DNA from: Candidatus Latescibacterota bacterium
GTDB lineage: Bacteria > Krumholzibacteriota > Krumholzibacteriia > Krumholzibacteriales > Krumholzibacteriaceae
NCBI GenBank assembly: GCA_019038625.1
Contig: JAHOYU010000078.1
Span: 1,687 to 65,686 of the forward strand
Length of the DNA stretch: 64,000 bases
Direction: 5' to 3'
Within the stretch, counting starts at the first letter, position 1; every line of letters starts with the position of its first letter. The notes beneath the pieces are model-generated. The model was not told the origin of the DNA, made no database searches, and saw only the letters and a list, made by a program, of their open reading frames with translations. Below, piece after piece: positions 12,891-47,952 of this stretch. The translations under genes and the position numbers were made by a program.

Positions 12891-12900
12891 GGAAGTCCAG

Positions 12901-13734: not shown

Positions 13735-13749
13735 AAGGAGAATGACCGG

Positions 13750-14220: not shown

Positions 14221-14272
14221 TGGTCCGTCTGGCTGCGGACGTCTTCAGGGAGACCCTGTAAGAGGAGAGCTC

Positions 14273-15397: not shown

Positions 15398-15436
15398 AGG
15401 ACAACTCGAAAAAAGATCGGACAGGAAAACGGTGTG

Positions 15437-16312: not shown

Positions 16313-16361
16313 GAATAATTTGACCGTATCATGAATACATTGAATCAGCAGAAGGAAAATA

Positions 16362-18215: not shown

Positions 18216-18217
18216 AT

Positions 18218-21490: not shown

Positions 21491-21768
21491 GAATTAGGGG
21501 TAAGAGAGATATCCCGTGCCGGGCGCGGAAGCAGGAATGAGCCCGGCGAAGCAACAAAATTTTACTACTATGGTCTGAGATTTTTTCTGTCTTTTGGCCC
21601 AGCGCTATAGGATTTCCCGCATTTATTAATGCCAGCGTCGGATTCTGCTTGCTTAATTACTTAAATAAATTATCTTGACATCTATCTGACGTTTATGACA
21701 GACTGCCGTCTGTTATATTGGACTAGGCGTTACGCATCGGTTGATAAATCAAATAAGGGGCCGCTGAA
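21491..21768. promoter_or_regulatory. 278-bp AT-rich intergenic region inside the cluster with a perfect inverted repeat ACAGAC-N4-GTCTGT (21698-21713) flanked by TTGACA (21675-21680) and TATATT (21714-21719)
   Basis: The only sizeable non-coding gap inside the co-directional cluster. The palindrome is read directly from the sequence. Spacing of the -35/-10-like hexamers is non-canonical, so promoter assignment is tentative. Confidence 0.3.
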
Positions 21769-21801
21769 GTGGCCGTAACATTCTTTCAGGAAAAGAATTA
21801 T

Positions 21802-22854: not shown

Positions 22855-22867
22855 GGGAGAGAAGGGT

Positions 22868-23686: not shown

Positions 23687-23740
23687 GATCATCCTGTTTG
23701 GGCTTCGGACCTGAGCCGGGGCCGGGAAGAAAAATCGTCT

Positions 23741-25531
23741 ATGAGTGAGATAAAAAACTATTGCTCCCTTTGTTCGCTGGCCTGCCCTGTTATTTTCAGG
23801 GGCGGAAAAAGAGGACCCATTTTTTCGAAGGATTCGCTTCTGACGATTGACTGGGACACCAGCGAAGAATCCAAATACGGCGGTAGTCTCTGTGCTCGTG
23901 GAAATGCCGCAATCGAATTCGTATCCCATCCGAAAAGAATCAATTATCCATTCGTTATCGGTGAGAGGACAAGGATAGAAGCGGCTGTCAAGGAGACTGC
24001 GAAAAATCTTTCTGCCATTAAGGATGAATCAGGTGGCGAGAAGATCGGTGTCCTGATAGGAGAGAATCTTACAAACGAAGAGGCAGCTCTGGCTCTGAAG
24101 TTCGCGAAAGAAGTCCTGGGGACTTCGAAGGTCGAGCTGTTCGCTCCAGATGATACACCATTATTCCGTTCATGGCTGGGGTGTGACCTTTCAGCCCTCG
24201 CGTCGACGGCAGAAAAACCGGCCGGCACGAAGAAAACCTTTCTCATAATCGGTGATTCTTTCTCTGAACATCCATGTACGGCAAAGCCGGTCCTCGCTGC
24301 CAGGTATTCGGGGAGGGGCAACGAAATAATCGTGATCAGTCCCGAGATCAGTCATACGGCATGGTTCGCGGGCAGGCACCTGCGGTGCAGGCCGGGAGGA
24401 GAAGCTGCTGTGGTAGCCGGCATGCTTAAGTCGGTTGCTGAGACGACGGCAAACGGTCTTGTGCCTGAATTGAAAAAACTGATGGACGGGGTCGAGTGGA
24501 ATGATATTGAAAGACTCGGGGGCGTGAAGCAGGACGCTATCGAAGGCGCCGCGGCTTCGGTCCTCGGTGCTGTAGGAATAGAGACTTACGTATCCAATAT
24601 CTTTGGCCGGTTCGCGATGCCAGGGCTCGTGTCGATCCTTGCAGAGGCGCTTACGGCGATATGCCCGGGGGATTCGAAATTCGATGCCCAGTTCGTGCAG
24701 CAGAATTCCTGGGGTATATATTCGGTGCTTGCAGCGGGCGAGACAACTCCGTTTCTCTCAAATCTCGAAGGTGAAGAGGTGGAGGCTCTGGTGATTCTGG
24801 GGCTGGATATCTTCTCGGCGTATCCCGCGGGCCCAATTGAAAACGCGCTGCGTGAAAAGAAATTTACAGTCGCTTCGCAGATGTTTTTCGGTCAGACCGC
24901 TTCGAGGGCGAATGTCGTTATTCCTGCGGCATGCCTGATGGAAAAGAAGGGGACTGTTTCTCCATCGTTCGGTGAAGACCTTGTCAGAGAAGACGTTATC
25001 GATCCTCCTGGAGGAGTGCTGACCGATGGTGAGTTCCTGGTCGCGCTTGCAAAGGAGATGGGTTCTGATCTTTCGGGTCCTGTCGATGTAGTGAGAAAGA
25101 TTTCCAGAGGCAGTTCGGGCGAAGGCGTTGTAGCGGACTGGACCGCCTTTTCGAACACCATCAGGGAGTTGGACGCGTCAGGAATGGTGTTGATACCCTG
25201 GAGCGAAGCTGTTCATGTCGCGGATGGTTCGACCAGCAGGAACCTTCACTGGTCAGAAGTGACATGTCCGGAACCAAGGCTGTATGTATCGAAAGAGACG
25301 ATGGATGAGCTTAACCTTGCCGAAAACGATCTGGTCAAGGTCTCTTCCGAGGGTGGAGAGGCTGTGCTGCCGGTCGAGGCGACCGAAAAACTGCAGGGCG
25401 GAACGGTAGCCGCGACGATTCATTTCCCCTCGGTAAGAAAGCTTTTCCCATGGAAGCTGGATGATCGCCGTGGAGAGGTGCTGCTCGCGCCGGTCCCGGT
25501 CAACCTTGACAGTCAGAGTGAGAAGAGCTGA
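23741..25531 (+). CDS. Molybdopterin-oxidoreductase-family protein (formate-dehydrogenase-alpha/NuoG-C-terminal-like), probably non-catalytic
   Basis: N-terminal Mo-bisPGD-type 4Fe-4S motif 'CSLCSLACP...(35 aa)...GSLCARG'. Only 596 aa. In the region aligning with the FdhF 'CCARVU/CHGPSVAG' active-site loop, no Cys/Sec-His was recognised by eye. Confidence 0.55.
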   Translation: MSEIKNYCSLCSLACPVIFRGGKRGPIFSKDSLLTIDWDTSEESKYGGSLCARGNAAIEFVSHPKRINYPFVIGERTRIEAAVKETAKNLSAIKDESGGEKIGVLIGENLTNEEAALALKFAKEVLGTSKVELFAPDDTPLFRSWLGCDLSALASTAEKPAGTKKTFLIIGDSFSEHPCTAKPVLAARYSGRGNEIIVISPEISHTAWFAGRHLRCRPGGEAAVVAGMLKSVAETTANGLVPELKKLMDGVEWNDIERLGGVKQDAIEGAAASVLGAVGIETYVSNIFGRFAMPGLVSILAEALTAICPGDSKFDAQFVQQNSWGIYSVLAAGETTPFLSNLEGEEVEALVILGLDIFSAYPAGPIENALREKKFTVASQMFFGQTASRANVVIPAACLMEKKGTVSPSFGEDLVREDVIDPPGGVLTDGEFLVALAKEMGSDLSGPVDVVRKISRGSSGEGVVADWTAFSNTIRELDASGMVLIPWSEAVHVADGSTSRNLHWSEVTCPEPRLYVSKETMDELNLAENDLVKVSSEGGEAVLPVEATEKLQGGTVAATIHFPSVRKLFPWKLDDRRGEVLLAPVPVNLDSQSEKS

Positions 25532-25533
25532 TC

Positions 25534-26013
25534 ATGGAAAAAAGAATATACATAAACATGAATCTTTGCAGCGGGTGTCGAGCCTGCGCAGCGGCCTGTG
25601 CTAACGGGCATCTCGAACAGGGCCTTCTCAAGCATGGGCCGGTCGAGGAAACTGCGTTGATGCCTCTTCACTGCCGTCATTGTGACAAGCCCCTCTGTCT
25701 TGAGGTCTGTCCGCAGGATGCGATCAAAAAGGACGAGAACGGGACGATAGTAAGGATGAGCCAGTTGTGTGTCGGGTGTAAGTCATGTATCATGGCGTGC
25801 CCGTTCGGCGTTATGTTCGTGCATTCTACCTGGCACGTATCACCGAAGTGCGATCTATGCCATGACAGGCTCGAAGATGATAAGGAGCCGAGATGCGTAT
25901 CGACATGCACATCCGGCGCGCTGGTTTTCGAAGAACTGACTGAACTGGAAAAGACTAACAGGAATGTTACCGAGGGCGGGCGATATTTCACCCGTTGGAT
26001 GTTGACTCGATAG
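25534..26013 (+). CDS. HycB/HyfA-like 4x[4Fe-4S] ferredoxin (formate-hydrogenlyase small Fe-S subunit family)
   Basis: Multiple CxxCxxCxxxC(P) motifs ('CSGCRACAAAC', 'CRHCDKPLCLEVCP', 'CVGCKSCIMACP', 'CDLCHDRL...CVSTC') in 159 aa. Confidence 0.7.
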   Translation: MEKRIYINMNLCSGCRACAAACANGHLEQGLLKHGPVEETALMPLHCRHCDKPLCLEVCPQDAIKKDENGTIVRMSQLCVGCKSCIMACPFGVMFVHSTWHVSPKCDLCHDRLEDDKEPRCVSTCTSGALVFEELTELEKTNRNVTEGGRYFTRWMLTR

Positions 26014-26025
26014 TGGAGAGGACAA

Positions 26026-26958
26026 ATGGACGCAGCACGGTATCTGATTGATTATCTGATATTCCCGGGGTTTTTGTTTACCGCGGTAGTAGGTCTTCTT
26101 ACCACCTGGGTCGACCGCAAGGTCACAGCGAGGGTCCATTGGAGGGTCGGACCTCCCTGGTACCAGCCCTTCGCTGACACGGTAAAACTTCTGGGCAAGG
26201 AAGTCATCGTTCCCGCCGGAGCGAGAAAGACGGGATTTCTTCTAATGCCGGTCGTTGGCCTGGCGGCGGCGACGCTGGCCTCTACCATCCTCTGGAAAGC
26301 TAATCTCGATCCTGGGAGTTCTTTCATCGGCGATTCGATAGTGGTCCTCTATATCATGACGATTCCGGCTATCGCGATGATCCTCGGGGCAAGCGCTTCA
26401 GGCAACCCGCTCGCCATTCTCGGTGGGGCCAGGGAGATGAAACTGCTTTTCGCCTACGAACTCCCACTTGTAATAGCTATGCTGACCACCGTGTACAAGG
26501 CTGGATCATTCTCCTTTGAAAACATCCTTGGTATGCAGGCTGCTTCGGGACAGTTTCTCGGCAGTTTTTCGGGGACCCTGGCTTTCATAGTAGCTATTTT
26601 CTGCGCGCAGGCAAAATGTTCGATCCTGCCTTTCGACATAGCAGAGGCCGAGACCGAACTTGCCGGGGGAGCTCATATAGAGTATTCCGGCGCTCCATAC
26701 GCGGTAGTCAGACTGAATATGGCGATCATGTTTTTCATCGTGCCGGTATTCATCGTAACGATGTTCTGGGGAGGATTCACCTTCGTCGGGTGGAAGATTC
26801 TCACATCCATCCTCAAATATGTCGCAATAATCGTTATCATGGTCCTTATAAAGAATACAAATCCAAGAGTCCGGATAGACCAGGCAGTGAGGTTTTTCTG
26901 GGGACCCATGCTGGTATTATCGATAATAGCCCTGATCCTGGCGGTGCTGGGTTACTAG
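26026..26958 (+). CDS. NuoH/HycD/MbhM-like membrane subunit of group-4 hydrogenase
   Basis: Polytopic membrane protein with the NuoH-family N-terminal signature 'TWVDRKVTARVHWRVGPPWYQPFADTVKL'. Confidence 0.8.
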   Translation: MDAARYLIDYLIFPGFLFTAVVGLLTTWVDRKVTARVHWRVGPPWYQPFADTVKLLGKEVIVPAGARKTGFLLMPVVGLAAATLASTILWKANLDPGSSFIGDSIVVLYIMTIPAIAMILGASASGNPLAILGGAREMKLLFAYELPLVIAMLTTVYKAGSFSFENILGMQAASGQFLGSFSGTLAFIVAIFCAQAKCSILPFDIAEAETELAGGAHIEYSGAPYAVVRLNMAIMFFIVPVFIVTMFWGGFTFVGWKILTSILKYVAIIVIMVLIKNTNPRVRIDQAVRFFWGPMLVLSIIALILAVLGY

Positions 26959-26973
26959 GTCGCGGAGGCAAGT

Positions 26974-27387
26974 ATGTCGCTGACTTTGAAAGCATTAAAG
27001 AAATCACCGTGGGTGTTTCATGTCAATACGGGTGCATGCAACAACTGTGACATTGAAATTCTAGATGCTCTGACTCCAAGGTTCGATGTGGAAAGATTCG
27101 GCATCGTACTTGTCGGAAGCATAAGGCATGCTGATGTTCTTTTGATCAGCGGCCCGGTCTCGAGAAATATTCTTCCGAGATTGAAGCGTCTTTATGACGC
27201 GGCGCCTAAACCGATCAAGGTGATCGTCGTAGGGGCATGTGGTTGCACGTGTGGGATCTTTAAGGACGGGTACAACATTATCGGCCCGGTCGACAAGCAC
27301 ATCCCCGTGGATGCGTATGTGCCGGGATGTCCGCCGAAGCCTGAAACGCTGATTGCGGGAGTGGTGAAAGTACTCAGTACGCTGTAG
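26974..27387 (+). CDS. NuoB/MbhJ/EchC-like hydrogenase small subunit (proximal 4Fe-4S)
   Basis: 'CNNCDIE', 'VGACGCTCG', 'YVPGCPPKPE' are the four Cys ligands of the N2-type cluster. Confidence 0.85.
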   Translation: MSLTLKALKKSPWVFHVNTGACNNCDIEILDALTPRFDVERFGIVLVGSIRHADVLLISGPVSRNILPRLKRLYDAAPKPIKVIVVGACGCTCGIFKDGYNIIGPVDKHIPVDAYVPGCPPKPETLIAGVVKVLSTL

Positions 27388-27427
27388 ACAGGATAACAGG
27401 GCGGCCCATCGCCAGAGAGAGCGCAGA

Positions 27428-27949
27428 ATGCAGAAAGAAGAACTGAAAAAGAAAATAGCCGAAAAGTTCGGAGAAAAGGTCACAATAGATGAACGTTCGG
27501 AGAAACGTGTATACATCTACGTAGAGAACGATATCTGGGTAGACCTGGCCGATTTCCTGTTCAACGATATGGACATCCGTTTTGATACGGGGGTTGGACT
27601 CGATGACCGGGATGGAGTCGAAATAATGTTTTTCTTCCCTGTCGACAGCGAACATTACTTTGTGACGATCAAGACTTTCCTTAAAAAACCTCATCCGGCA
27701 ATTGAGTCGATCTCGAATATCATACCGGGTGCAAAGTGGATAGAGAGAGAGATCTTCGAGATGTTTGAAGTGAATTTCCTCAATCATCCGGATCTCAGGC
27801 CCGTTCTCAGGTGCGATACGCGTCCCAAGGACTTCTATCCCCATAAGAGGGAAAATAAGGATGACCACGAGACGGCAAGAAGGAAGAACGACGGAGACGA
27901 TAGATTCAACGAAATCTGGGGGAAGCCCTACAAGGGCAAGAATCCCTGA
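27428..27949 (+). CDS. NuoC/MbhK-like 30-kDa-family subunit
   Basis: NuoC-like 'AKWIEREIFEMFEVNFLNHPDLRPVL' region; ~173 aa between NuoB-like and NuoD-like genes. Confidence 0.65.
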   Translation: MQKEELKKKIAEKFGEKVTIDERSEKRVYIYVENDIWVDLADFLFNDMDIRFDTGVGLDDRDGVEIMFFFPVDSEHYFVTIKTFLKKPHPAIESISNIIPGAKWIEREIFEMFEVNFLNHPDLRPVLRCDTRPKDFYPHKRENKDDHETARRKNDGDDRFNEIWGKPYKGKNP

Positions 27950-27993
27950 GCCAGTTCCGGCATTCAGTGCCGTTTTGATAATGAGGTGAACGA

Positions 27994-29199
27994 ATGGTAA
28001 AAAAGATCCCAATCGGCCCGTTTCATCCGATTCTTGAAGAACCCGAGTTTTTCGAGCTGCATGTCGATGGTGAAAAAGTAGTCGATATTGACATGACGAT
28101 AGGCTGGAGCCACCGTGGGATCGAGATCCTGTCGGAGCACAAGACATGGGATCAGGTCCCGTTTCTGGTGGAGAGGATCTGCGGTATCTGTTCCTGCTCC
28201 CATCCATATGCATACGTGAAGGCTGTAGAGGACCTTTTACAGGTGGAAGTGCCGAAACGCGCTCAGTATGTACGGGTGATAATAGCAGAGTTGGAAAGGC
28301 TTCACAGCCATCTGCTGTGGACAGGCCTTGCCGGCCATTTCATCGGCTATAACACTGTTTTCATGTGGTGCTGGAAATACAGGGAACCTGTTCTCGACAT
28401 CCTCGAGGCCGTAACAGGAAACAGGAACCATTACGCGATGATGCGTATCGGAGGCGTAAGACGGGATATCCCCATGGAGGAGTACGGAAATATCCGAAAG
28501 CTTCTCGATTATGTCTGGGAAAAGAACAACATGCTGACGAACGCGATTCTCGATGATCCGGTAATACACGCGCGGACCAAGAATGTCGGGATCCTGGATA
28601 AGAAGCATTGCAGACTGTATGGAGCTCTTGGACCAACGGCAAGGGCGGGTGGTTATGATGTCGACGCGAGACGGGACCACCCGATCGACGCCTATGGAGA
28701 ACTCGATTTCGACGTGATCGTCTGCAAGAACGGTGATGTGTTCGACAAGGCTGTCGTAAGACAGCTCGAGAACTTCGAATCGATAAAGATCATCCGCCAG
28801 TGTCTCGACAGGCTCGAGGATCTGGGGCCGGGTACGGAAGAGGATCTCTGCCTTGAGATAGGCGAGATTCCTCCGGGAGAAGGTATCGGCACATACGAAG
28901 CGCCGAGAGGAGAGGTTTTTCACTATATACGTTCGAATGGAAAGAATATGCCTATGAGGCACAAGGTGAGAGCCCCGAGCTTCAACAATATTCTGACGAA
29001 CGAACACAGTGTGATTGGAAATTCCGTTGCGGACGCAGGCCTGATAACCGCGGCTGTCGATCCGTGCTATTCATGCACAGAGAGAGTCGGCAGGGTGGAT
29101 GTAGGCACTGGTGACCGTTATATGATGAGCGAGGGAGACCTTATCAGGCTTTCTCAGGAGAAGACAGAACAGATAAGAAAAGAACTGGAAGGTAACTGA
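27994..29199 (+). CDS. Group-4 membrane-bound [NiFe] hydrogenase large subunit (MbhL/EchE/NuoD-like)
   Basis: Both NiFe-ligating motifs intact: L1 'RICGICSCSH' (RxCGxCxxxH) near the N-terminus and L2 'DPCYSCTER' (DPCxxCxxR) at the C-terminus; 401 aa. Confidence 0.85.
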   Translation: MVKKIPIGPFHPILEEPEFFELHVDGEKVVDIDMTIGWSHRGIEILSEHKTWDQVPFLVERICGICSCSHPYAYVKAVEDLLQVEVPKRAQYVRVIIAELERLHSHLLWTGLAGHFIGYNTVFMWCWKYREPVLDILEAVTGNRNHYAMMRIGGVRRDIPMEEYGNIRKLLDYVWEKNNMLTNAILDDPVIHARTKNVGILDKKHCRLYGALGPTARAGGYDVDARRDHPIDAYGELDFDVIVCKNGDVFDKAVVRQLENFESIKIIRQCLDRLEDLGPGTEEDLCLEIGEIPPGEGIGTYEAPRGEVFHYIRSNGKNMPMRHKVRAPSFNNILTNEHSVIGNSVADAGLITAAVDPCYSCTERVGRVDVGTGDRYMMSEGDLIRLSQEKTEQIRKELEGN

Positions 29200-29233
29200 G
29201 GCCGAATAACAGGACGGTTCCGGAGAAAAAAAC

Positions 29234-31111
29234 ATGAATGATCTTCTGTATATTATTATCGTTGCGGCAGTAGCTGGCATTATTCCTCTCCTGGTCCCAA
29301 GGAAGGGCAGCATCGTCGCCGGGATAACAAGCCTGATAGCAGCCGTCTGGATCTTTATCCGTTCGATGCAGCTTTTCAACGCCGGTGAGATCGCATGGAG
29401 TGTCCCTCTGTTCAACCTTGGAGGAGAGATACCGTTCGAGTTCGCGCTGAGGCTGACAGGGTTCAGTTCATTCGTCCTGTTGTTTATCAGCCTCTTCGGA
29501 GTGCTTATCATCCTGTATTCTCTCGGGTATATGAGAGGCAAGGGTCAGGCTTCGATCTATTATTCGTATCTTATGTGGACCCTTGCTGCCGCGGCAGGAG
29601 TGGTCATGGCAGACAACCTGCTTATTCTTCTCGTATTCTGGGAGATTCTGACGGCGATCCTTTTCTTCCTGATAAACATGGGTGGAGAAGGACACGAGAA
29701 GGCTGCGGCGAAGACTTTCACGATACTTGGATTCACCGATGCTACGATGCTTCTCGGAATCATACTCATATGGACGACCTTCGGAACGATATCGATCTCC
29801 GAACTGGCGGCGAATCCGATAGTACCTTCGTCCCCGGTCACAATAATCGCTTTCATATGTCTGTTTATCGGCGCTATCGCCAAGGCCGGCGGGATGCCTT
29901 TTCACAGCTGGATACCTGCTATCGCCAAGCCGACCCACGCTTCGGTCATCGCCTTCCTTCCAGCATCGCTTGACAAGCTTCTTGGCATATATCTGCTGGG
30001 ATTGCTGACTCTGAGGATATTTGCCATCGAACCAGGCGGGCCTCTTTCGATGATGATGATGATAGTCGGCGCGGTTACGATAGTCTTTGCCGTTCTGATG
30101 GCACTCATTCAGAAAAACGTCAAAAAACTTCTTTCCTTTAACGCCATCAGCCAGGTTGGATACATGGTGCTCGGAGTAGGAAGCGGAATCCCCGTCGCCA
30201 TCGCGGGTGGACTCTTTCATATGGTCAACCACGCGATATACAAGAGCGGACTCTTTCTCGGTGCCGGTGCTGTGGAGAAAATGACTGGAACGACTGAGCT
30301 CGAAGATCTCGGAGGACTGGCGAGGTTGATGCCAGTGACGTTCATTACGATGTTAATAGCGGGACTCACTATGTCTGGCGTTCCGCCATTCAGCGGGTTC
30401 GTTTCCAAATGGCTCCTTTACCAGGGGATGCTCGAAGGAAAATACATGATTTTCCTCATAGTGGCGATCTTCGGCAGCGCCCTGACGATGGCTTCGTTCA
30501 TAGGAGTTTTCCACGCTATCTTCCTCGGCCGCAGGCCCGAGAAATTCGATAATGTTCGTGAAGTCGACTTCTCCATGCAGCTTCCGATGATTTTCATAGC
30601 AATTCTCTGTATCGGGTTTGGAATATTCGCCAGCTATCCGCTGCAGAATTTCATTCTTCCTGTAGTAAGCGATGCGAGCGGGATCTCGATGTCCGGTTTT
30701 GAAGTGATCACTGAGAACACGAATGGATTCTGGAGCCCGACGAGCGCTACGATCCTTATGGTGGTAGGGCTGGTAGTAGGACTGATAATCTTTGCCTTCG
30801 GACGCATCAAAAAGAACCTGAGATATGACGATAATACGTGGACAGGGGGAAACATCCTCGAGAATGAAGAGATAAGGATCCCCGGCACACATTTCTATAA
30901 AACAGTGACAGATGAACTGAACCCGGTTGCGACCGGAGCATTCAACGATGGAGAGAAAGGCGCCTATGATCTGTACAATATCTTTGGCCGCCTTGGAGAT
31001 CTCGTTGTTCAGTTCCTGAGGTCCATGCATGACGGGATCCTGTCCACCTATCTTTCGTGGGCCGTGATAGGTCTCGGTGTACTTGCATTCATACTAATGT
31101 TCCGTTGGTAA
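29234..31111 (+). CDS. MrpA/NuoL-like cation/proton antiporter-type membrane subunit (MbhH-like, long form)
   Basis: 625 aa, ~16+ TM helices, NuoL/M/N-family conserved region ('SQVGYMVLGVGSG...HMVNHAIYKSGLFLGAG'). Confidence 0.75.
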   Translation: MNDLLYIIIVAAVAGIIPLLVPRKGSIVAGITSLIAAVWIFIRSMQLFNAGEIAWSVPLFNLGGEIPFEFALRLTGFSSFVLLFISLFGVLIILYSLGYMRGKGQASIYYSYLMWTLAAAAGVVMADNLLILLVFWEILTAILFFLINMGGEGHEKAAAKTFTILGFTDATMLLGIILIWTTFGTISISELAANPIVPSSPVTIIAFICLFIGAIAKAGGMPFHSWIPAIAKPTHASVIAFLPASLDKLLGIYLLGLLTLRIFAIEPGGPLSMMMMIVGAVTIVFAVLMALIQKNVKKLLSFNAISQVGYMVLGVGSGIPVAIAGGLFHMVNHAIYKSGLFLGAGAVEKMTGTTELEDLGGLARLMPVTFITMLIAGLTMSGVPPFSGFVSKWLLYQGMLEGKYMIFLIVAIFGSALTMASFIGVFHAIFLGRRPEKFDNVREVDFSMQLPMIFIAILCIGFGIFASYPLQNFILPVVSDASGISMSGFEVITENTNGFWSPTSATILMVVGLVVGLIIFAFGRIKKNLRYDDNTWTGGNILENEEIRIPGTHFYKTVTDELNPVATGAFNDGEKGAYDLYNIFGRLGDLVVQFLRSMHDGILSTYLSWAVIGLGVLAFILMFRW

Positions 31112-31136
31112 GAGCGGGTAAGGGAAAGGCAGAAGA

Positions 31137-31733
31137 ATGGAGATTTTTCTCCTCGTATTGACGATATTCATGATTGTTGGATCGATCGTGGCGATAGAAT
31201 CAAAGAACCTTCTTTCGTCGGTGATCTCTGTCGGTATAGTCGGCTTCAGTCTCGGGATCATTTTTCTTATGCTGGGGGCTCCCGATATTGCGATCACACA
31301 GGTCGTAGTAGAGATACTGATACTCGTTATCCTGATCAGAGCGACGATCACAACTGACAATACTGCTATCGAAAAGCACAAGGACACCTTTCCTGTCGTT
31401 GTCAGCCTGATCTTTTTCGGGCTGTTCCTGATCTTCGCCTATTTTGCGGTTCAGGAACTTCCGCAGTTCGGAGATCCTCTTCCCAGAGAAGCGGCAGCTC
31501 ACTATCTCGAAAATGGCGCAGAAGAGACGGGCGCTATGAATATTGTTACAGCCGTGCTTCTCGATTACAGGGCCTATGATACCATGGGGGAAGCGACCGT
31601 ACTTTTTGCTTCTATCGTAGGTTCATTTGTCATCCTGAGAAGACGCGGGAGAAAACATCGGAAGGAAGAAGATACTGAAAAGGTCGGGATCCTCGAAGAT
31701 GAGGATATCAAAAAGAACTTCGAGGGATTCTAG
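31137..31733 (+). CDS. MrpB-N-terminal-like (MbhD/MbhE-like) membrane subunit
   Basis: Small hydrophobic protein at the MrpB position of Mrp-Mbh operons; weak family assignment. Confidence 0.45.
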   Translation: MEIFLLVLTIFMIVGSIVAIESKNLLSSVISVGIVGFSLGIIFLMLGAPDIAITQVVVEILILVILIRATITTDNTAIEKHKDTFPVVVSLIFFGLFLIFAYFAVQELPQFGDPLPREAAAHYLENGAEETGAMNIVTAVLLDYRAYDTMGEATVLFASIVGSFVILRRRGRKHRKEEDTEKVGILEDEDIKKNFEGF

Positions 31734-31743
31734 AGGGAGCGCT

Positions 31744-32244
31744 ATGGATAAGATGGATAAATACATAAAGGACAGCAAGAGCGGGATGACTCCTATAGTC
31801 AAGACGGTAGTGCGTTTTGTCATGGGTATCATCTTTATCTTCGGCGCCTATGTCGTTCTTTACGGCCATCTCACCCCGGGCGGAGGCTTCGCTGGCGGAG
31901 TGATACTTGCCTGTGGATTCATAATCCTTACTCTCGCTTTCGGTAAGGGGCTCGGACTTTCGAAGCTGAGCGATACCTGGGCGTCCATTCTTGATAATTC
32001 CGCTGCCCTGTTATTTCTCACGATCGGTTTTATAGGTTTTTCCGGGGGTTACTTTTTTACGAACGTACTTGGAAAGGGCAAGGAGTTTGCTCTTTTCAGC
32101 GCGGGAACCATACCCCTTTGCAATATAGCTATCGGATTGAAGGTCACAGCGTCCGTATTCGCGGTATTTCTTACGCTTTCGATCTTCGGACGGTTTATTT
32201 CAAAACTTGTTGATGATTATGAAGATGATACTGAAAAGGAGTAA
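31744..32244 (+). CDS. MnhB-domain membrane subunit (MrpB C-terminal-like, MbhF-like)
   Basis: 'GHLTPGGGFAGG' matches the MnhB signature GHxxPGGGFxGG. Start moved to the ATG at 31744 behind RBS 'AGGGAG'. Confidence 0.6.
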   Translation: MDKMDKYIKDSKSGMTPIVKTVVRFVMGIIFIFGAYVVLYGHLTPGGGFAGGVILACGFIILTLAFGKGLGLSKLSDTWASILDNSAALLFLTIGFIGFSGGYFFTNVLGKGKEFALFSAGTIPLCNIAIGLKVTASVFAVFLTLSIFGRFISKLVDDYEDDTEKE

Positions 32245-32250
32245 GGCCTG

Positions 32251-32601
32251 ATGATCCTGTACTTTCTGACGCTGGTGCTTTTCGTGATGGGACTTTACTG
32301 TCTCGTGGCGAAAAAGAATATCATAAAGAAGATCATCGGGATCGTCATCACCGAGTATTCCATCAACCTTTTCCTGGTGCTTGTCGGCTGGCGTAAAGGC
32401 GGGATAGCTCCGATCCTTCTTAAGGGTATGCAGAAGAGTGAGATCGTGGAGAAAGGCGTAGATCCATTACCCCAGGCGCTGGTACTGACTTCGATCGTGA
32501 TCGGGCTCGGTGTACTGGCTCTGATGGTGTCGATCTGCCTGAGACTTTACGAAAAATACAAGACATTCGATATGTCCGAGATTAACAGGCTTCGAGGATA
32601 G
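32251..32601 (+). CDS. MrpC/NuoK-like membrane subunit (MbhG-like)
   Basis: 116 aa, three TM helices, NuoK/MnhC-like. Confidence 0.55.
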   Translation: MILYFLTLVLFVMGLYCLVAKKNIIKKIIGIVITEYSINLFLVLVGWRKGGIAPILLKGMQKSEIVEKGVDPLPQALVLTSIVIGLGVLALMVSICLRLYEKYKTFDMSEINRLRG

Positions 32602-32620
32602 CGTACAAGCAGGAGTACAA

Positions 32621-34120
32621 ATGCAGGCATATTTTCCATTATTTACAGCGATTCCACTGGCCATGGCCTTCATCAATCTGCTGGTCACAAAGGTCAACAA
32701 GAAGGTAACTGATTTTCTTGCATTCCTGGCGATGATCAGCCTGGCCTCAATGGCTATCATGATGCTTTTCGAGTCTCCTTTCTCTTATCAGTTGGGCGGG
32801 TGGGCGCCACCCATCGGTATCCTGCTGGTATCGGATGGCCTCAGCTCGGTGATGCTGGTCATCATCAATGTTATTGGCCTGCTGTCCATGATCTACTCGA
32901 TGAAGTACATGACCACATATACGGCCAAGCCGAAGTTCTACACACTGTTCCTTCTGATGATCGCAGGGATGAACGGCGTAGTCATAACTGGAGACATGTT
33001 CAACTTGTATGTCTTCCTTGAGATCGCGTCGATCGCCTCGTACGCTCTCGTAGGATTTGGCTGCGAGAAAAATGAACTCGAGGCCTCGTTCAAGTACCTG
33101 ATCCTGGGTGGAGTGGCCAGCACGGTTGTACTCTTTGGAATAGCCTTCCTCTATTCGATGACTGGAACTCTCAACATGCCGGATCTCGCGGTCAAGATTC
33201 CAGAGATCGGACACAACCACGCGATGGGATTCGTAATGGCTCTGTTCATCATGGGATTCGGGCTCAAGGCGTCGTCTGTTCCGTTCCATGCCTGGTTGCC
33301 AGACGCGCATCCGAGCGCGCCAGCTCCCATATCCGCCATGCTCTCAGGCGTACTTATCAAGGCTCTTGGCATCTATTCGATCGCAAGGATCATGTTCAAC
33401 ATATTCGGTTCAGACACTATGGTCTCTTCGATACTCATGTTCCTGGGAGCGCTTTCGATGCTTGTCGGCGTCTTCCTCGCTGTCGGACAGCATGATTTTA
33501 AAAGAATGCTGGCGTATCACTCGATAAGCCAGATGGGATATGTGATGATGGGGCTCGGTCTTGGTCTCAATCCGAACGTACCCCCGGCGCTCGCGGCGCT
33601 GGCGTTATTCGGCGGGCTCTTTCATATGGTCAACCACGCTGTTTTCAAGTCCTGCCTCTTTCTCTGTGCCGGTTCTTTCGAATACCGGACGGGGACGAAA
33701 GACAAAACAGAAATGGGTGGGCTTATCAGGCGTATGCCTTTCACATCTGCTACCTGCTCGATAGCCTCGTTATCGATTTCAGGTGTGCCGCCATTTAACG
33801 GATTCTGGAGCAAGCTGATCATCATCGTTGCGTTCATGAAAGCCGGATATACGATATATGGTATTCTGGCGATCCTGGTCGCCTTTATGACGATGATCTC
33901 TTTCATCAGATTACAAATGAATGTTATTTTCGGAAAGCTTCCGGAGAAGTTCGAGAAAATCAAAGAAGCTCCCTTCGCGATGGTACTACCATTGGTCATT
34001 CTGGCAATTCTGTGCCTTGCGCTAGGTATCTTCTATCCGTTGGTCGATCAGAACCTGATCGAAGCTGCGAAAGACGCGTTACTGGACAAGGCGCAATATA
34101 TAAGTTTTCTGGGCAGGTAA
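32621..34120 (+). CDS. MrpD/NuoM-like antiporter-type membrane subunit (second large antiporter subunit)
   Basis: 499 aa; 'SQMGYVMMGLGLG...HMVNHAVFKSCLFLCAGS' NuoL/M/N-family signature. Confidence 0.75.
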   Translation: MQAYFPLFTAIPLAMAFINLLVTKVNKKVTDFLAFLAMISLASMAIMMLFESPFSYQLGGWAPPIGILLVSDGLSSVMLVIINVIGLLSMIYSMKYMTTYTAKPKFYTLFLLMIAGMNGVVITGDMFNLYVFLEIASIASYALVGFGCEKNELEASFKYLILGGVASTVVLFGIAFLYSMTGTLNMPDLAVKIPEIGHNHAMGFVMALFIMGFGLKASSVPFHAWLPDAHPSAPAPISAMLSGVLIKALGIYSIARIMFNIFGSDTMVSSILMFLGALSMLVGVFLAVGQHDFKRMLAYHSISQMGYVMMGLGLGLNPNVPPALAALALFGGLFHMVNHAVFKSCLFLCAGSFEYRTGTKDKTEMGGLIRRMPFTSATCSIASLSISGVPPFNGFWSKLIIIVAFMKAGYTIYGILAILVAFMTMISFIRLQMNVIFGKLPEKFEKIKEAPFAMVLPLVILAILCLALGIFYPLVDQNLIEAAKDALLDKAQYISFLGR

Positions 34121-34137
34121 ATGAAAAAGGGTAATCG

Positions 34138-34623
34138 ATGAAACGATTCTTACATTTTCTGATTCTACTGGGCATCTGGATGCTTTTGACGTGGTCCGTC
34201 GCCTGGCAGGAAGTTCTGGTCGGTGTCGTTGTCGCGCTTATAGCGGAACTGCTGCTTGGAGATATCTTTCCAATAGGAGCGATCAAGCTCTTCAACCCGA
34301 TCAGGCTCTACTGGATGATAGTCTATGCTGTCGTATTTTTAGGTTATGTCATACGGGCGAACTTCGATGTTGCCTACCGGGTCCTGAATCTCTACATGCC
34401 GATCCGCCCCGGGATCGTCAAGGTCAAGATGAGGTTGAAGAGTGATATGGCGAGGACGTTCCTTGCGAATTCTATCACGCTGACACCCGGAACGCTGACG
34501 GTGGATTGTGTCGGTGAAAACCTGTACGTTCACTGGATAAACATTACTTCCGACGATCCGGAGAAGGAAACGGAGATCATCGTATCCCGTTTCGAAAATC
34601 TGTTAGAAAGGATATTTGAGTGA
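34138..34623 (+). CDS. MrpE/MnhE-like subunit (MbhA-like)
   Basis: ~161 aa with two N-terminal TM helices and a soluble tail, in the conserved Mrp order E-F-G. Confidence 0.5.
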   Translation: MKRFLHFLILLGIWMLLTWSVAWQEVLVGVVVALIAELLLGDIFPIGAIKLFNPIRLYWMIVYAVVFLGYVIRANFDVAYRVLNLYMPIRPGIVKVKMRLKSDMARTFLANSITLTPGTLTVDCVGENLYVHWINITSDDPEKETEIIVSRFENLLERIFE

Positions 34624-34874
34624 GTGTCTTTATCGCGCTGTTGATTCTCTGCATTTTCCTCTGCCTGTACAGGGTAGGGAAGGGGCCTACAGCACCCGAC
34701 AGGACGGTGGCGATTGATATTCTTGGAACCCTCGTAGTCGGTTTCTGCGCGATATACTCGATCATCACCAAGAAAGACCTGTATATGAATATCGGAATAT
34801 CCTGGGCTCTTCTGAGTTTCATCGGAACGCTTGCCCTGTCAAAATACCTTGAGGGGAGGGGTTTCGATGAATGA
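34620..34874 (+). CDS. MrpF/MnhF-like subunit (MbhB-like)
   Basis: 84 aa, three TM helices; overlaps the neighbouring genes by a few nt. Confidence 0.5.
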   Translation: MSVFIALLILCIFLCLYRVGKGPTAPDRTVAIDILGTLVVGFCAIYSIITKKDLYMNIGISWALLSFIGTLALSKYLEGRGFDE

Positions 34875-35211
34875 GACGATAGGCCTGATATTTCTTATCA
34901 TCGGTATCACTTTTGACGTAATCGGTTGTATCGGCCTGGTAAGGCTACCCGATGTATATAACCGCCTCCAGGCGGCCACTAAATGCGTCACTCTGGGAAC
35001 GAGCATGATATTACTGGCGGTAGTCTTTTATACCGGCATAAACTCGATCGGTGTAAAAGCCCTGCTCTGTATCTGGTTCGTCCTGATAACTTCTCCAACG
35101 GGAGCTCATGCCATAGCGAGAGCTGCTCACAAGTCAGGTGTCCGGTTATGGAAGGGCAGCGTAATGGATAAATATGCTGAGGACAATGAAGGTGCCGACA
35201 GCTCCTCCTGA
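34867..35211 (+). CDS. MrpG/MnhG-like subunit (MbhC-like)
   Basis: 'MNETIGLIFLIIGITFDVIGCIGLVRLPDVYNRLQAATK' is the typical MnhG N-terminus; ATGAATGA overlap with mrpF. Confidence 0.55.
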   Translation: MNETIGLIFLIIGITFDVIGCIGLVRLPDVYNRLQAATKCVTLGTSMILLAVVFYTGINSIGVKALLCIWFVLITSPTGAHAIARAAHKSGVRLWKGSVMDKYAEDNEGADSSS

Positions 35212-35250
35212 CACGGGAGGCTTTAACTGTAGCGGGGGTTGGTAGATATA

Positions 35251-35877
35251 ATGCGTTATCCAAAACTGAGAGAACTCAAGGAAGCTATCACAGCCCTGAT
35301 CAAGGGGCCGTACACATCGAAGTTCCCCAAGGTACCCGCGACGGTTCCTGAACATTTCCGTGGTACACCGACCTATGTGCCTGACGAATGTGTCGGTTGC
35401 GGTTCGTGCGCCCAGGTATGCCCGGCCGGGGCCATAGAGATCGTTGATGAATACAGGGAAGATGAAGGGAAGATGGTACGCAGGATCGAGAGAAATTGGG
35501 GCAACTGCATATTCTGCAGCCAGTGCTATGAGTACTGCATCACAAACAAGGGAATCGAGCTCGACCCTGATTTCGAGAAATCATGCTTTGATATGGCTGA
35601 TGCGATCAACACGCATGACAAGGAACTGCTCTTCTGCGAGCATTGCAGTACCCCTATCACGGCAAAAGACCATATTAAGTGGATCGGCAAAAAGCTTGGA
35701 GAGCTTTCGTTCGCGAACCCGACCCTTACAGTATACAAATATGGAGAATTAAAATTGGTGGAAGAGGGAACCGGGGACAATCCTCGGAAAAATCTCGAAA
35801 GAGATAATTTCATCAGGGTCCTCTGCCCGAACTGCCGTGCCGCTTATATCCTTTCGGATGAGTGGGGGACAAGCTGA
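35251..35877 (+). CDS. NuoI/MbhN/EchF-like 2x[4Fe-4S] ferredoxin subunit
   Basis: 'CVGCGSCAQVCPAGAI' and 'CIFCSQCYEYC'. The ORF track begins at a TTG (35239); the first ATG is 35251. Confidence 0.7.
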   Translation: MRYPKLRELKEAITALIKGPYTSKFPKVPATVPEHFRGTPTYVPDECVGCGSCAQVCPAGAIEIVDEYREDEGKMVRRIERNWGNCIFCSQCYEYCITNKGIELDPDFEKSCFDMADAINTHDKELLFCEHCSTPITAKDHIKWIGKKLGELSFANPTLTVYKYGELKLVEEGTGDNPRKNLERDNFIRVLCPNCRAAYILSDEWGTS

Positions 35878-35900
35878 CCCGGATGGGATCTTGCGAATTC

Positions 35901-35931
35901 AGGCCTCCCTCTTCGGGGGCCTTTTTTTTTG
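35901..35931 (+). terminator. Rho-independent terminator after the Mbh membrane module
   Basis: Hairpin AGGCCTCCC-tcttc-GGGGGCCT followed by T9. Confidence 0.5.
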
Positions 35932-36028
35932 ATCTTGTAAATGAGAGGGAATGGCACTTCATTAATCAGGACGGCAGGTGATGAGAGTTCCCTGCCAGGG
36001 GAATCGTACCCGGGAGGTGCTTGGATAT

Positions 36029-36517
36029 ATGGAGAAGTTGAGGGAAAAATTGCTGGCACGCCTTGAAGGCAAGCGTTTCGGCGTAGTCGGTATAGGCAAT
36101 GTGATCAAGGGAGATGATGGCGCCGGCTGTGTAGTCGTAGAGGGTCTTCAGGGGAAGATAGACCTCCCGATCGTCGATTGCGCCGAGGTCCCTGAAAATT
36201 ACGGGGGATGGGTAGAGAGGCAGGATCTTGACAGTGCTATATACATCGATGCTGTTGATTTCGGAGGAGAACCGGGGGAAGTGAGGATAATTCCTCTGGA
36301 AAAGATGATGGTGACAGCGAGCAGTACGCATACCCTGTCTCTGCATTATATGATCATCTATCTGAGAGATGAGTGGAAGGGCGATCCGATCATGATCGGG
36401 ATCCAGCCGAAAGAGATGAGGATCGGAGACGGGCTCAGTGATGAGGTGAGCGCCGGGGTGAAGAAATTGACCGATATTCTGATCGAGGCAGCTCTGACTG
36501 ACAAGCAGGATAGATAA
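36029..36517 (+). CDS. hycI: [NiFe]-hydrogenase maturation endopeptidase (HycI/HybD family)
   Basis: 'FGVVGIGNVIKGDDGAGCVVVEGL' N-terminal motif of hydrogenase maturation proteases; start placed at 'MEKLREKL'. Confidence 0.7.
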   Translation: MEKLREKLLARLEGKRFGVVGIGNVIKGDDGAGCVVVEGLQGKIDLPIVDCAEVPENYGGWVERQDLDSAIYIDAVDFGGEPGEVRIIPLEKMMVTASSTHTLSLHYMIIYLRDEWKGDPIMIGIQPKEMRIGDGLSDEVSAGVKKLTDILIEAALTDKQDR

Positions 36518-36549
36518 AAAACTGAACAGGCTCGCAATTTCTGGAAAAA

Positions 36550-36583
36550 CCCGTGGAGAACAGTCTCCGCGGGTTTCTTTTTT
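36550..36583. terminator. Bidirectional intrinsic terminator between convergent hycI (+) and iorB (-)
   Basis: CCCGTGGAGA-acag-TCTCCGCGGG hairpin followed by TTTCTTTTTT; A-rich tract upstream allows function on both strands. Confidence 0.5.
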
Positions 36584-36611
36584 CCTGGGTCCCTGGTTTT
36601 GAAGGCCGACT

Positions 36612-37193
36612 CTATTTTACTTCCCTGCCCGCCATGAATGCCTTCTTGTTCAATTCACCGGTCCCCTTGGGAGCCATACGCTCGATGACCTTCAGCCAGG
36701 TCTCCTCCTCTATCTCAAGAGAGAGAGAAAGAACACCCAGAAGGATCGTGTTGACCAGGCGCGAATTGCCGAGGTCCATAGCGATCTGATATGCATCAAC
36801 TACGATAGCTCCTGGAACGAGAGTTTTTATCTTATCGACGACCTTTTCGGGATAGAAGAACTTGCCGGTCGTTGTGATCGTCGGGATGATCTTCTGCTCG
36901 TTGATGATGATATTGCCATCAGGATGAAGATCGCCAACCCAGCGAAGAGCTTCGGCCAGCTCGAAAGCCAGGATAACGTTGGCCTCCCGTGAGGGGATAA
37001 GTGGAGACATCACCTCTTCGCCGAATCTGATGTGGCTTGTCACTATCCCACCCCTCTGGGACATCCCATGCACTTCACTCTTTTTCGCGTCCAGCCCGCT
37101 TTCTTTTGCTACTTCGGTGAGGATCTCGCTGGCCAGAAGTACCCCCTGCCCTCCGACTCCGACGATCAGAACATTTGTAGTGCCGTTTTTCAT
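36612..37193 (-). CDS. iorB: Indolepyruvate:ferredoxin oxidoreductase beta subunit
   Basis: 'NVLIVGVGGQGVLLASEIL' N-terminus of IorB/2-oxoacid:Fd oxidoreductase gamma-like subunits; start trimmed to 'MKNGTT'. Confidence 0.7.
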   Translation of the reverse strand: MKNGTTNVLIVGVGGQGVLLASEILTEVAKESGLDAKKSEVHGMSQRGGIVTSHIRFGEEVMSPLIPSREANVILAFELAEALRWVGDLHPDGNIIINEQKIIPTITTTGKFFYPEKVVDKIKTLVPGAIVVDAYQIAMDLGNSRLVNTILLGVLSLSLEIEEETWLKVIERMAPKGTGELNKKAFMAGREVK

Positions 37194-37222
37194 ATCTCGG
37201 GTCCTTTCTATTTCAGTCCTGA

Positions 37223-47898: not shown

Positions 47899-47952
47899 GG
47901 AAAGAAACTTTACGCGCTAGGGGCGACCGTTAAATATTTTTATTATCAAGGA

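Follow-up and report, generated by a model that had tools for sequence, protein, structure and literature searches.

An Mrp-type group 4 [NiFe] hydrogenase locus of Krumholzibacteriota with a candidate NAD(P)(H)-linked redox module encoded upstream

Which redox partner serves a [NiFe] hydrogenase that is encoded together with an Mrp-type membrane arm, and where does the gene set of such an enzyme begin? Metagenome pipelines usually score clusters of this type simply as 'Mbh' or 'NuoD', and the redox partner is therefore assumed to be ferredoxin. We examined these questions on a stretch of 64,000 nucleotides, referred to below as the window, from contig JAHOYU010000078.1 (positions 1,687 to 65,686; assembly GCA_019038625.1) of a Candidatus Latescibacterota bacterium that GTDB assigns to the Krumholzibacteriaceae (Krumholzibacteriota). 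In an initial annotation of this DNA, positions 26026–35877 had been described as a complete Mrp-Mbh type group 4 [NiFe] hydrogenase. Our analysis places this hydrogenase in a longer gene cluster with four additional redox genes upstream, and the description that we favour, as probable but with some reserve, is that of a reversible, NAD(P)(H)-linked, ion-translocating [NiFe] hydrogenase with an extra redox module. Domains were called with Pfam, scores for curated families are NCBIfam bit scores read against the cut-offs of the models, and solved relatives are given with their Protein Data Bank (PDB) bit scores.

All 13 genes assigned earlier to 26026–35877 were found there on the plus strand, each with a strong Pfam match (Table 1). 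The Ni-Fe ligands that had been reported for the large subunit proved intact when the translation was re-inspected. L1 reads RICGICSCSH (aa 61–70) and L2 reads DPCYSCTER (aa 356–364), giving all four Ni-Fe cysteines, and the chain continues for 37 aa beyond L2, as expected for a HycI-matured hydrogenase. All orthologues that were examined have both Cys pairs and a tail of 35–43 aa; in other phyla L2 varies to DPCYCCTER/DR. Bit scores against solved structures, used here as a proxy for subgroup placement, rank Pyrococcus furiosus MbhL first (312 bits, aligned end to end), followed by HycE (255), Nqo4 (206) and MbsL (183). The top NCBIfam matches are NuoD models, all under their cut-offs, and the Joint Genome Institute (JGI) names close homologues 'membrane-bound hydrogenase subunit alpha'.

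The large subunit is accompanied by a gene for a HycI-type endopeptidase, which scores 93.5 bits with the NCBIfam model hydrog_prot (cut-off 47.45), and cleavage of the C-terminal tail by this adjacent enzyme is predicted. It is the only maturation gene, as had been stated: no other hyp genes were found in the 64-kb window. At two related loci hypA follows hycI (L038, Verrucomicrobiota, and L039, a metagenome contig), and L038 has hypB/hypF as well. Features of group 4 are found throughout the core, with the L1/L2 Cys pairs on a NuoD-like fold and a NuoB-like small subunit (Cys positions 22, 25, 89, also 91 and 93, and 119) with NuoC-, NuoH- and NuoI-like partners. Since the Cys pairs and the tail are kept in the orthologues, MbhL is the best relative and HycI lies above its cut-off, the sequences indicate a true energy-converting group 4 [NiFe] hydrogenase rather than a derivative of Mbx/MBS or Nuo, in agreement with the initial annotation.

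The NuoI-like subunit at the other end of the core is related to its counterpart in formate hydrogenlyase (FHL). Its best NCBIfam match is the FHL iron-sulfur subunit (95 bits), and in the PDB HycF (66 bits) scores slightly above MbhN (59 bits), which would fit a partner of HycB type docking there. The protein is ∼70 aa longer than MbhN and contains an extra pair of CxxC motifs (133/136 and 196/199) within residues 116–199, possibly a Zn-ribbon or an additional metal site.

The hydrogenase genes are not the whole unit. Eighteen closely packed plus-strand open reading frames (ORFs) span 21769–36517 and represent a 17-gene operon plus hycI. The conserved unit begins at 21769, and the four genes at 21769–26013 belong to the hydrogenase operon; the span 26026–35877 had thus been called complete with these four genes cut off. 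From the beta gene to the NuoI-like gene (21769–35877) the intergenic spacing is −44 to 54 nt. The HycB-like gene lies 2 nt past the Fdh-like stop and 12 nt before the NuoH-like start. The sole long gap in the gene row precedes the beta gene, and its 278 nt are the presumed promoter region. A scan for the sigma-70 consensus gave 16 matches against 14.7 expected from shuffles, thus no promoter is demonstrated in the gap; the phylum may use other promoter types. Terminator-like hairpins within the operon region were seen only after the NuoI-like gene and after hycI, and tRNA and Rfam scans of the 64-kb window gave no match. The locus is a clean, complete example of its cluster type, and its upstream beta/gamma, Fdh-like and HycB-like genes set it apart as a sub-type distinct from the classical ferredoxin-only Mbh.

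The first two upstream products resemble, by sequence, the NADPH-binding beta-gamma pair of P. furiosus sulfhydrogenase I. The beta-like subunit has Cys sets for three [4Fe-4S] clusters; conserved are a set of four Cys at the N terminus and two CxxCxxCxxxC motifs. In the PDB it scores highest with sulfhydrogenase I beta (9nez_B, 144 bits), and its best NCBIfam matches are ShyB/HydB (160/156 bits, under the cut-offs). The gamma-like subunit matches sulfhydrogenase I gamma best (9nez_C, 166 bits) and scores 195 bits with AsrB and 194 bits with 'hydrogenase gamma', both again under the cut-offs; its C-terminal [2Fe-2S] motif is present in 30 of 30 orthologues. The pair falls outside AsrABC, with 132 bits for AsrA against a cut-off of 323 and an AsrB score well short of the required 289, and the Pfam matches of the operon genes include no AsrC-like gene. 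The HycB/CooF-like ferredoxin, the last of the four upstream products, carries 16 Cys in four CxxCxxCxxxC motifs and has PDB matches to HycB3 of the hydrogen-dependent CO2 reductase (HDCR; 83 bits) and to FHL HycB (61 bits).

In order to assess conservation, the window proteins were mapped onto 37 GTDB-species loci and three contigs found by exact-protein look-up. The gene order beta-gamma-(Fdh-like)-HycB-NuoH-NuoB-NuoC-NuoD-H'-MbhDE-MrpB-MrpC-MrpD-MrpE-F-G-NuoI-HycI is kept. Co-linear clusters were found in ∼30 Krumholzibacteriota species-level metagenome-assembled genomes (MAGs), one Omnitrophota MAG, one Verrucomicrobiota MAG and two unassigned metagenome contigs. Where a locus extends for 4.6 kb or more ahead of the NuoH-like gene, beta and gamma are always encoded there (28/28 loci, several phyla, 33–51% beta/gamma identity).

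The close relatives of the large subunit (77–93% identity, ∼30 MAGs) come from Candidatus Krumholzibacteriota, and on this evidence the origin of the window in that phylum is almost certain. The sole 100%-identical large subunit in the database lies on a 68-kb contig of a MAG labelled 'Bacteroidales bacterium'; because all other close relatives are Candidatus Krumholzibacteriota, this contig is probably mis-binned or mislabelled. Individual loci show further variations. L040 has three antiporter-like genes of 402, 631 and 500 aa (11173–17120), L039 encodes a NuoC-NuoD fusion of 557 aa and an MrpG-CBS fusion (10001–11674 and 17795–18493), and L038 carries upstream a second, unrelated NiFe hydrogenase with its own HycI (1–2451 and 15002–17919).

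The third upstream product, which is encoded between gamma and HycB, resembles formate dehydrogenase (Fdh). Its AlphaFold2 (AF2) model, made from a 43-sequence alignment, has a predicted local distance difference test score (pLDDT) of 90.3 and a predicted template modelling score (pTM) of 0.92. The top Foldseek matches of this model are M. extorquens Fdh1, FdhF in the E. coli FHL, and Nap, with TM-scores of 0.77–0.80 at 16–18% identity. The cysteines of the FS0 [4Fe-4S] cluster (C8, C11, C15 and C51) are invariant in the 43 Fdh-like sequences, as is P136-D137-D138. In every sequence-based alignment to solved Fdhs, the Sec/Cys position falls on D138 and the His position on T139 (V in the consensus). 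An equivalent of the catalytic Arg was not found, as residues ∼280–343 align to no solved Fdh, whether the query was the single sequence or the profile of 43 sequences. The score with the curated Fdh-alpha model TIGR01591 is 131 bits against a cut-off of 666. We conclude that, as far as can be judged from its sequence, the protein is not a formate dehydrogenase, and that it is most likely an accessory Fe-S, electron-wire or scaffold subunit.

Two other assignments of the Fdh-like protein and its module were considered and rejected. NCBIfam NuoG models give 79 and 42 bits and no NuoG chain is among the top 50 folds, which speaks against homology with the C-terminal domain of NuoG; the parallel with that domain would hold as an analogy only. 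The NADP-dependent Fdh3 of T. onnurineus is also unsuited as a model for the module: there a different protein, of 39 kDa, serves as the NAD(P) subunit, and the Fdh carries Cys-His-Arg. The Fdh-like protein is the least conserved subunit, with a median identity of 59% among Krumholzibacteriota orthologues as compared to 81% for gamma and 79% for the large subunit. Its gene is absent from the otherwise co-linear L033 (Omnitrophota MAG), L038 and L039, while L040 has a 524-aa version of 23% identity; the gene thus appears dispensable to the cluster. In L028 ('Latescibacteria bacterium 4484_7', 4913–6569) it is present as two ORFs of 300 and 250 aa, a split that a frameshift, a pseudogene or an assembly error could explain.

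The membrane arm has equivalents of all of MrpA–G, as had been proposed, with Pfam matches to MbhD/E, MnhB, Oxidored_q2, Proton_antipo_M (twice), MNHE, MrpF and MnhG. The initial annotation had described MrpB as split in two. However, MbhD plus MbhE, the match of the 198-aa product, correspond to the C-terminal domain of MrpA, so that MrpB is the 181-aa product alone. The split protein is therefore MrpA (625 + 198 aa), an arrangement also found in Mbh and Mbs. For the MrpB-like gene, the alternative start ATG 31744 would abolish a 35-nt overlap with the MbhDE gene. The 499-aa subunit gives a full-length PDB match to MbhH (6cfw_H, 306 bits) and 413 bits with NCBIfam PRK08376, and its residues E134, K216, H223, H335, H339, K343 and K398 are near-invariant across orthologues. 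These matches identify it, at the level of sequence, as an MbhH/MrpD orthologue.

The 625-aa subunit is of a different type. Its best NCBIfam match is PRK08668 (MbxH' type; 312 bits), with residues 2–619 aligned to 2–610 of 613. In the PDB it matches MbhH (169 bits), MrpA (164) and MbsH' (157, covering residues 1–545), and it aligns to MrpA of two Mrp structures. A Foldseek search with the core of its AF2 model returned MrpA (7qru_A) as the top match and MbsH' with the highest query-normalised TM-score (TMq, 0.72); the core superposes best on MrpA, HycC and MbsH'. The 14 core helices are followed by transmembrane helix (TM) 15 (∼502–526), a 50-residue loop, a helix HL and TM16 (∼602–622). By hydrophobic moment HL (∼579–600, muH 0.67) is the most amphipathic segment in the protein, and in the loop W536, G538, G539, N540, E546, P550, G551, T552, Y555 and T557 are invariant in 37 homologues. 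As the C-terminal tail has low confidence in the AF2 model (pLDDT <50 at residues 520–617), the assignment of HL and TM16 is based on hydropathy, hydrophobic moment, full-length family matches and predicted secondary structure.

In P. furiosus MBS, the sulfur-reducing relative of membrane-bound hydrogenase (MBH), MbsH' carries a TM15-Loop1-HL-TM16 element that MBH encodes separately as MbhI (PMC7684303). No separate MbhI gene was found at our locus, where the TM15-loop-HL-TM16 element sits on the 625-aa subunit, and the two antiporter-like subunits are predicted to be held by its HL/TM16 part. In the 625-aa subunit, the channel residues K217, H329, K337 and K392 are present in 32/32 orthologues and E137 in 27/32. 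With the canonical channel residues thus kept in both proteins, the initial annotation was correct in counting two antiporter-like subunits, as compared to the single MbhH of Pyrococcus MBH. The same annotation had read the two subunits as a more complex-I-like trait. The number of pumps is one in MBH, two in MBS and three in complex I (PMC7684303), and an arm with two pumps corresponds to what is known from MBS/Mrp, not to a specific step toward complex I. Taken together, the sequences point to an MBS/Mrp arrangement, with two antiporter-like subunits and an MrpB–G-like module, that is joined to a Ni-Fe site of MBH type.

Table 1. Genes and other features of the hydrogenase locus and of the gene run upstream of it (positions in the window; lengths in aa unless stated)
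Feature	Length	Coordinates	Strand	Pfam match or remark
Pyr_redox protein	432	within 1671–21490	+	
Pyr_redox protein	561	within 1671–21490	+	
Fer4 protein	422	within 1671–21490	+	
FrhB-like protein		5804–6901	+	weak
HdrA-like protein	1019	7406–10465	+	
Fer4 protein	322	within 1671–21490	+	
Second AsrA/AsrB-like pair		11856–13734	+	
HdrC-like protein	156	within 1671–21490	+	
FrhB/FdhB-like protein	374	14273–15397	+	
Partial-FAD::NuoE fusion	292	within 1671–21490 (NuoE/F-like 15434–18215)	+	
NuoF-like protein	617	within 1671–21490 (NuoE/F-like 15434–18215)	+	
NuoG-N-terminal::HdrA fusion	1111	18155–21490	+	
Intergenic region, AT-rich	278 nt	21491–21768	+	sole long gap in gene row; presumed promoter region
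Sulfhydrogenase-beta/AsrA-like Fe-S subunit	361 (from GTG)	21769–22854	+	Fer4_22 4e-29; ATG 21802 possible start
Sulfhydrogenase-gamma/AsrB-like FAD + NAD(P)-binding + [2Fe-2S] subunit	272	22868–23686	+	NAD_binding_1, FAD_binding_6, DHODB_Fe-S_bind
Formate-dehydrogenase-like protein, bis-pyranopterin guanine dinucleotide (bis-PGD) fold	596	23741–25531	+	weak Molybdopterin, Molydop_binding
HycB/CooF-like ferredoxin	159	25534–26013	+	Fer4_11 6e-21
NuoH/MbhM-like membrane anchor	310	26026–26958	+	NADHdh 6e-66
NuoB/MbhJ-like small subunit, proximal [4Fe-4S]	137	26974–27387	+	Oxidored_q6 3e-28
NuoC/MbhK-like subunit	173	27428–27949	+	Complex1_30kDa 5e-18
[NiFe] large subunit	401	27994–29199	+	Complex1_49kDa 2e-65, NiFeSe_Hases 1e-17
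MrpA-N-terminal/MbsH'-type antiporter-like subunit	625	29234–31111	+	Proton_antipo_M 7e-49
MbhD+MbhE fusion (MrpA C-terminal domain, NuoJ-like)	198	31137–31733	+	MbhD 9e-16, MbhE 2e-10, weak Oxidored_q3
MrpB/MbhF-like subunit	181 as ORF	31699–32244	+	MnhB 2e-22
MrpC/MbhG/NuoK-like subunit	116	32251–32601	+	Oxidored_q2 9e-26
MrpD/MbhH-type antiporter-like subunit	499	32621–34120	+	Proton_antipo_M 2e-66
MrpE/MbhA-like subunit	161	34138–34623	+	MNHE 2e-41
MrpF/MbhB-like subunit	84	34620–34874	+	MrpF_PhaF 2e-17
MrpG/MbhC-like subunit	126 as ORF	34831–35211	+	PhaG_MnhG_YufB 1e-26; probable start ATG 34867
NuoI/HycF/MbhN-like 2x[4Fe-4S] subunit	212	35239–35877	+	Fer4 families
Terminator-like hairpin + T-run after NuoI-like gene		35901–35930	+	8-bp stem, 6 GC pairs, T8 tail
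HycI-type maturation endopeptidase	179 as ORF	35978–36517	+	HycI 1e-11; ATG 36029 plausible start
Second terminator-like hairpin after hycI		36547–36585	+	13-bp stem, then T-run

The encoded clusters form a plausible electron wire, by analogy with FHL (FdhF-HycB-HycF-HycG-HycE) and with sulfhydrogenase (NADPH-gamma-beta-delta-alpha). Electrons would be exchanged between NAD(P)H and gamma (FAD, [2Fe-2S]) and would pass through beta (three clusters) and, where it is present, FS0 of the Fdh-like protein to the HycB-like protein (four clusters). From there, the path would lead via the NuoI-like subunit (two clusters) and the NuoB-like [4Fe-4S] cluster to the Ni-Fe site. If such a wire exists, it follows that the enzyme would equilibrate NAD(P)H/NAD(P)+ with H+/H2 while moving H+/Na+, and ferredoxin might also be accepted at exposed clusters. 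The standard potentials are −320 mV for NAD(P)H and −414 mV for H2. From these values, H2 formation from NAD(P)H is uphill by ∼18 kJ/mol at standard state. The yield of the reaction from ferredoxin to H2 in MBH is small, ∼12 kJ/mol per 2e− (PMC8165549). With these energetics a two-pump arm is easier to grasp if ion influx helps this fermenter to form H2 from NAD(P)H when H2 is low, or if H2-driven reduction of NAD(P)+ pumps ions.

How far this description holds differs between its parts. It is very probable that the locus represents a type of [NiFe] hydrogenase that is coupled to Mrp and has an extra redox module physically attached; whether NAD(P)(H) is a physiological partner we consider evenly balanced. 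In its favour, gamma is as conserved as the catalytic subunit. Several points weigh in the other direction. It is gene order alone that would join beta, gamma, the Fdh-like and the HycB-like proteins to the hydrogenase, and classical MBH takes ferredoxin directly at MbhN, without such a module. The two-pump arm is hard to rationalise for forward pumping, as the ferredoxin reaction yields little and the NAD(P)H reaction nothing. Finally, the Fdh-like protein keeps a confident full fold, pterin-binding-like motifs and an invariant Asp-Asp at the ligand position, and it may catalyse a reaction on another substrate via this Asp pair.

The cluster could alternatively encode a classical ferredoxin-dependent Mrp-Mbh (4d-like). 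Beta, gamma and the Fdh-like protein would then make up a soluble NAD(P)H-linked oxidoreductase of their own that shares no more than a transcript with the hydrogenase, and the clusters of the NuoI-like or HycB-like proteins would be fed directly by reduced ferredoxin, such as that formed by the IorAB-like enzyme. This would fit the closeness of the large subunit to MbhL, by which name JGI calls its close homologues, and the IorA/IorB-like genes immediately downstream on the opposite strand; moreover, electron transfer from ferredoxin to H2, for which 12 kJ/mol per 2e− is quoted (PMC8165549), is the sole exergonic forward reaction for a pumping hydrogenase. However, mere co-transcription sits poorly with the retention of beta and gamma beside the hydrogenase genes in all 28 of the loci with sufficient upstream DNA, across several phyla and at the low identities given above, and with the tight spacing around the HycB-like gene. 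In the three clusters that lack the Fdh-like gene, no catalytic partner is encoded for a stand-alone beta-gamma enzyme, and in FHL proteins of the HycB type connect the donor module to the NuoI-like subunit (7z0s). We consider the ferredoxin-only alternative rather unlikely.

An FHL-like complex (4a/4b-like), in which the Fdh-like protein would be a working Mo/W enzyme acting on formate or a small substrate and feeding HycB, with beta/gamma as a side branch to NAD(P), is more doubtful still. The Fdh-like and HycB-like pair directly before the hydrogenase genes does mirror FHL and the Thermococcus fdh-mfh-mnh clusters, the model shows a confident, complete Fdh/Nap fold, the FS0 cluster is kept, and the ligand position is taken by an invariant Asp-Asp; Asp is a known metal ligand in Nar-type enzymes. 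Against this stand the replacement of Sec/Cys-His by Asp and Thr/Val in all 43 sequences, the segment of the catalytic Arg that could not be aligned and the Fdh-alpha score far below its cut-off, together with the low conservation of the subunit and its loss from otherwise intact sister clusters. The 64-kb window showed neither a formate channel nor Mo-cofactor genes. A relative without hydrogenase function (Mbx/MBS-, Ehr- or complex-I-like) would share the membrane arm of H' and H, which is the MBS arrangement, and would account for NuoD models as the top, though sub-threshold, NCBIfam matches. The four Ni-Fe cysteines in every orthologue, the C-terminal extension next to hycI and the 183 bits of MbsL as compared to 312 for MbhL speak so clearly against it that the sequence effectively excludes this explanation, and we give it next to no weight.

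The favoured description of a reversible, NAD(P)(H)-linked hydrogenase can be taken one step further, tentatively and at odds that we put well below even. The cluster might code for one complex that acts as an NAD(P)H:proton oxidoreductase, as the counterpart of complex I among hydrogenases, and that is normally run 'backwards'. It would take its input from a beta-gamma pair of ferredoxin-NADP+ reductase (FNR) type, contain a catalytically dead, Fdh-derived Fe-S subunit and use H+/Na+ influx via its two-pump arm of MBS type to drive the uphill formation of H2 from NAD(P)H. If this is true, fermenters in many candidate phyla would shed nicotinamide reductant as H2 without bifurcation or Rnf. 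The cluster type is widespread in uncultured anaerobes, and the literature adds Saganbacteria, Zixibacteria and Elusimicrobia. If beta/gamma truly couples to NAD(P)(H), models of H2 and redox balance for sediment and groundwater lineages would change. The enzyme would then also be a natural intermediate form in the story that leads from Mrp via MBH/MBS to complex I, because it would combine a true Ni-Fe site, a two-pump arm and a nicotinamide input module.

The genes around the operon were inspected as well. The plus strand at 1671–21490 carries ∼14 flavin/Fe-S oxidoreductase genes, and this run has the look of one Hdr-type complex or several, which may be electron-bifurcating. The Hdr/NuoEF-type cluster (7406–21490) was considered as a part of the hydrogenase system and set aside. 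Only the closest relative (L001) has the 1111-aa gene upstream, and ∼30 other loci are without it; as the cluster is not conserved beside the hydrogenase in other Krumholzibacteriota, we treat it as a neighbour. Downstream, on the minus strand and convergent with hycI, lie IorB/IorA-like genes (36612–38995) for a 2-oxoacid:ferredoxin oxidoreductase of the pyruvate:ferredoxin oxidoreductase (POR) family with thiamine pyrophosphate (TPP) and 2x[4Fe-4S], which is a local source of reduced ferredoxin. Further genes on the plus strand (46495–53341) encode pyruvate kinase, a fusion of citrate-lyase acyl carrier protein (ACP) and beta subunit (48398–49672), CitF and a 659-aa protein like phosphoenolpyruvate carboxykinase (PEPCK), a central metabolism typical of a fermenter. 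A sigma-54 activator with tetratricopeptide (TPR) repeats is encoded at 53869–56337. A minus-strand ORF of 1009 aa with a Peptidase_M1 domain (57969–60998) overlaps three plus-strand ORFs (57918–61061; 576, 182 and 237 aa). Since the latter have no Pfam matches, the minus-strand gene is probably the real one.

The gene set agrees with descriptions already in the literature. Matheus Carnevali et al. (2019) reported an 'enigmatic' group 4 NiFe hydrogenase in Saganbacteria RX5A, with closest relatives in Zixibacteria and Omnitrophica (PMC6349859). Its gene set comprises a group 4 large subunit, Mrp, asrA-like, asrB-like and cooF-like genes and an unclassifiable molybdopterin protein (PMC6349859, Supplementary Note 5). 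Meheust et al. (2020) described an 'Mbh-Mrp-oxidoreductase type' in Elusimicrobia and stated the function of the oxidoreductase to be unknown (bioRxiv 10.1101/765248). All six components are found here, in order, in one locus, a likeness by published gene-set description. The phylum differs, being Krumholzibacteriota, and an Omnitrophota locus (L033) is likewise among the relatives found here. As every element of the published description is present, the locus is a further member of this genomic pattern. The pattern is thus already known, the biochemistry of the cluster type is uncharacterised, and our locus is a Krumholzibacteriota example of it.

Among the classes of HydDB, 4d is the ferredoxin-coupled Mrp-linked class, 4b is Mrp-linked and respires formate or CO, and 4g is a loose class of unknown function (PMC5037454). 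P. furiosus MBH (6CFW; 4d) provides the closest solved large subunit and MbhH, has the same Ni-Fe ligands, and its MbhA–G and MbhJ–N all have equivalents here, so that the MrpA–G homologues typical of 4d are present. However, MBH has one antiporter-like subunit and the small MbhI, whereas our locus has two, of which the 625-aa H'-type subunit carries the MbhI-like element; MBH also lacks the HycB, Fdh-like and beta/gamma module, and its gene order is unlike that of this locus. P. furiosus MBS/Mbx (6U8Y) shares the two-pump module of MbsH and MbsH', including the HL/TM16 part of H'. MBS, in contrast to the intact ligands found here, has lost the Ni-Fe site, and it uses an Fe-S cluster to reduce polysulfide (PMC7684303). 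Of the four Ni-Fe cysteines MBS keeps two and complex I none (PMC8165549).

E. coli FHL (7Z0S/7Z0T) and T. onnurineus Fdh2-Mfh2-Mnh2 (4a/4b) have the layout of Fdh fold, four-cluster HycB and HycF-like subunit in common with this locus, and the FHL large subunit also has a C-terminal tail that is cleaved by HycI. The multi-cluster connector of HycB type is thus shared, whereas the Fdh-like protein here lacks the Sec/Cys-His(-Arg) of the catalytic enzymes, and full MrpE/F/G-type subunits and a beta/gamma NAD(P) module are added. The beta-gamma pairs of P. furiosus sulfhydrogenase I (9NEZ; group 3b, NADP-coupled) and of AsrAB have FAD/NAD(P) domains, a [2Fe-2S] motif and beta Cys clusters that are kept here; those of sulfhydrogenase I sit on a soluble group 3b alpha-delta, whereas here the pair is linked by gene order to a membrane group 4 enzyme. 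With complex I the locus shares a homologous core of NuoB-, C-, D-, H-, I-, J-, K- and L/M/N-like subunits. Complex I has a quinone site, no Ni-Fe cysteines and a NuoEF input, in contrast to the Ni-Fe site, the MrpE/F/G subunits and the FNR-type beta-gamma pair seen here, and the NuoE/F-like genes of the window belong to the separate Hdr-type cluster. If the proposed wire holds, the parallel with complex I would extend to a nicotinamide input module and to an Fe-S subunit of Fdh origin as an analogue of the NuoG C-terminal domain.

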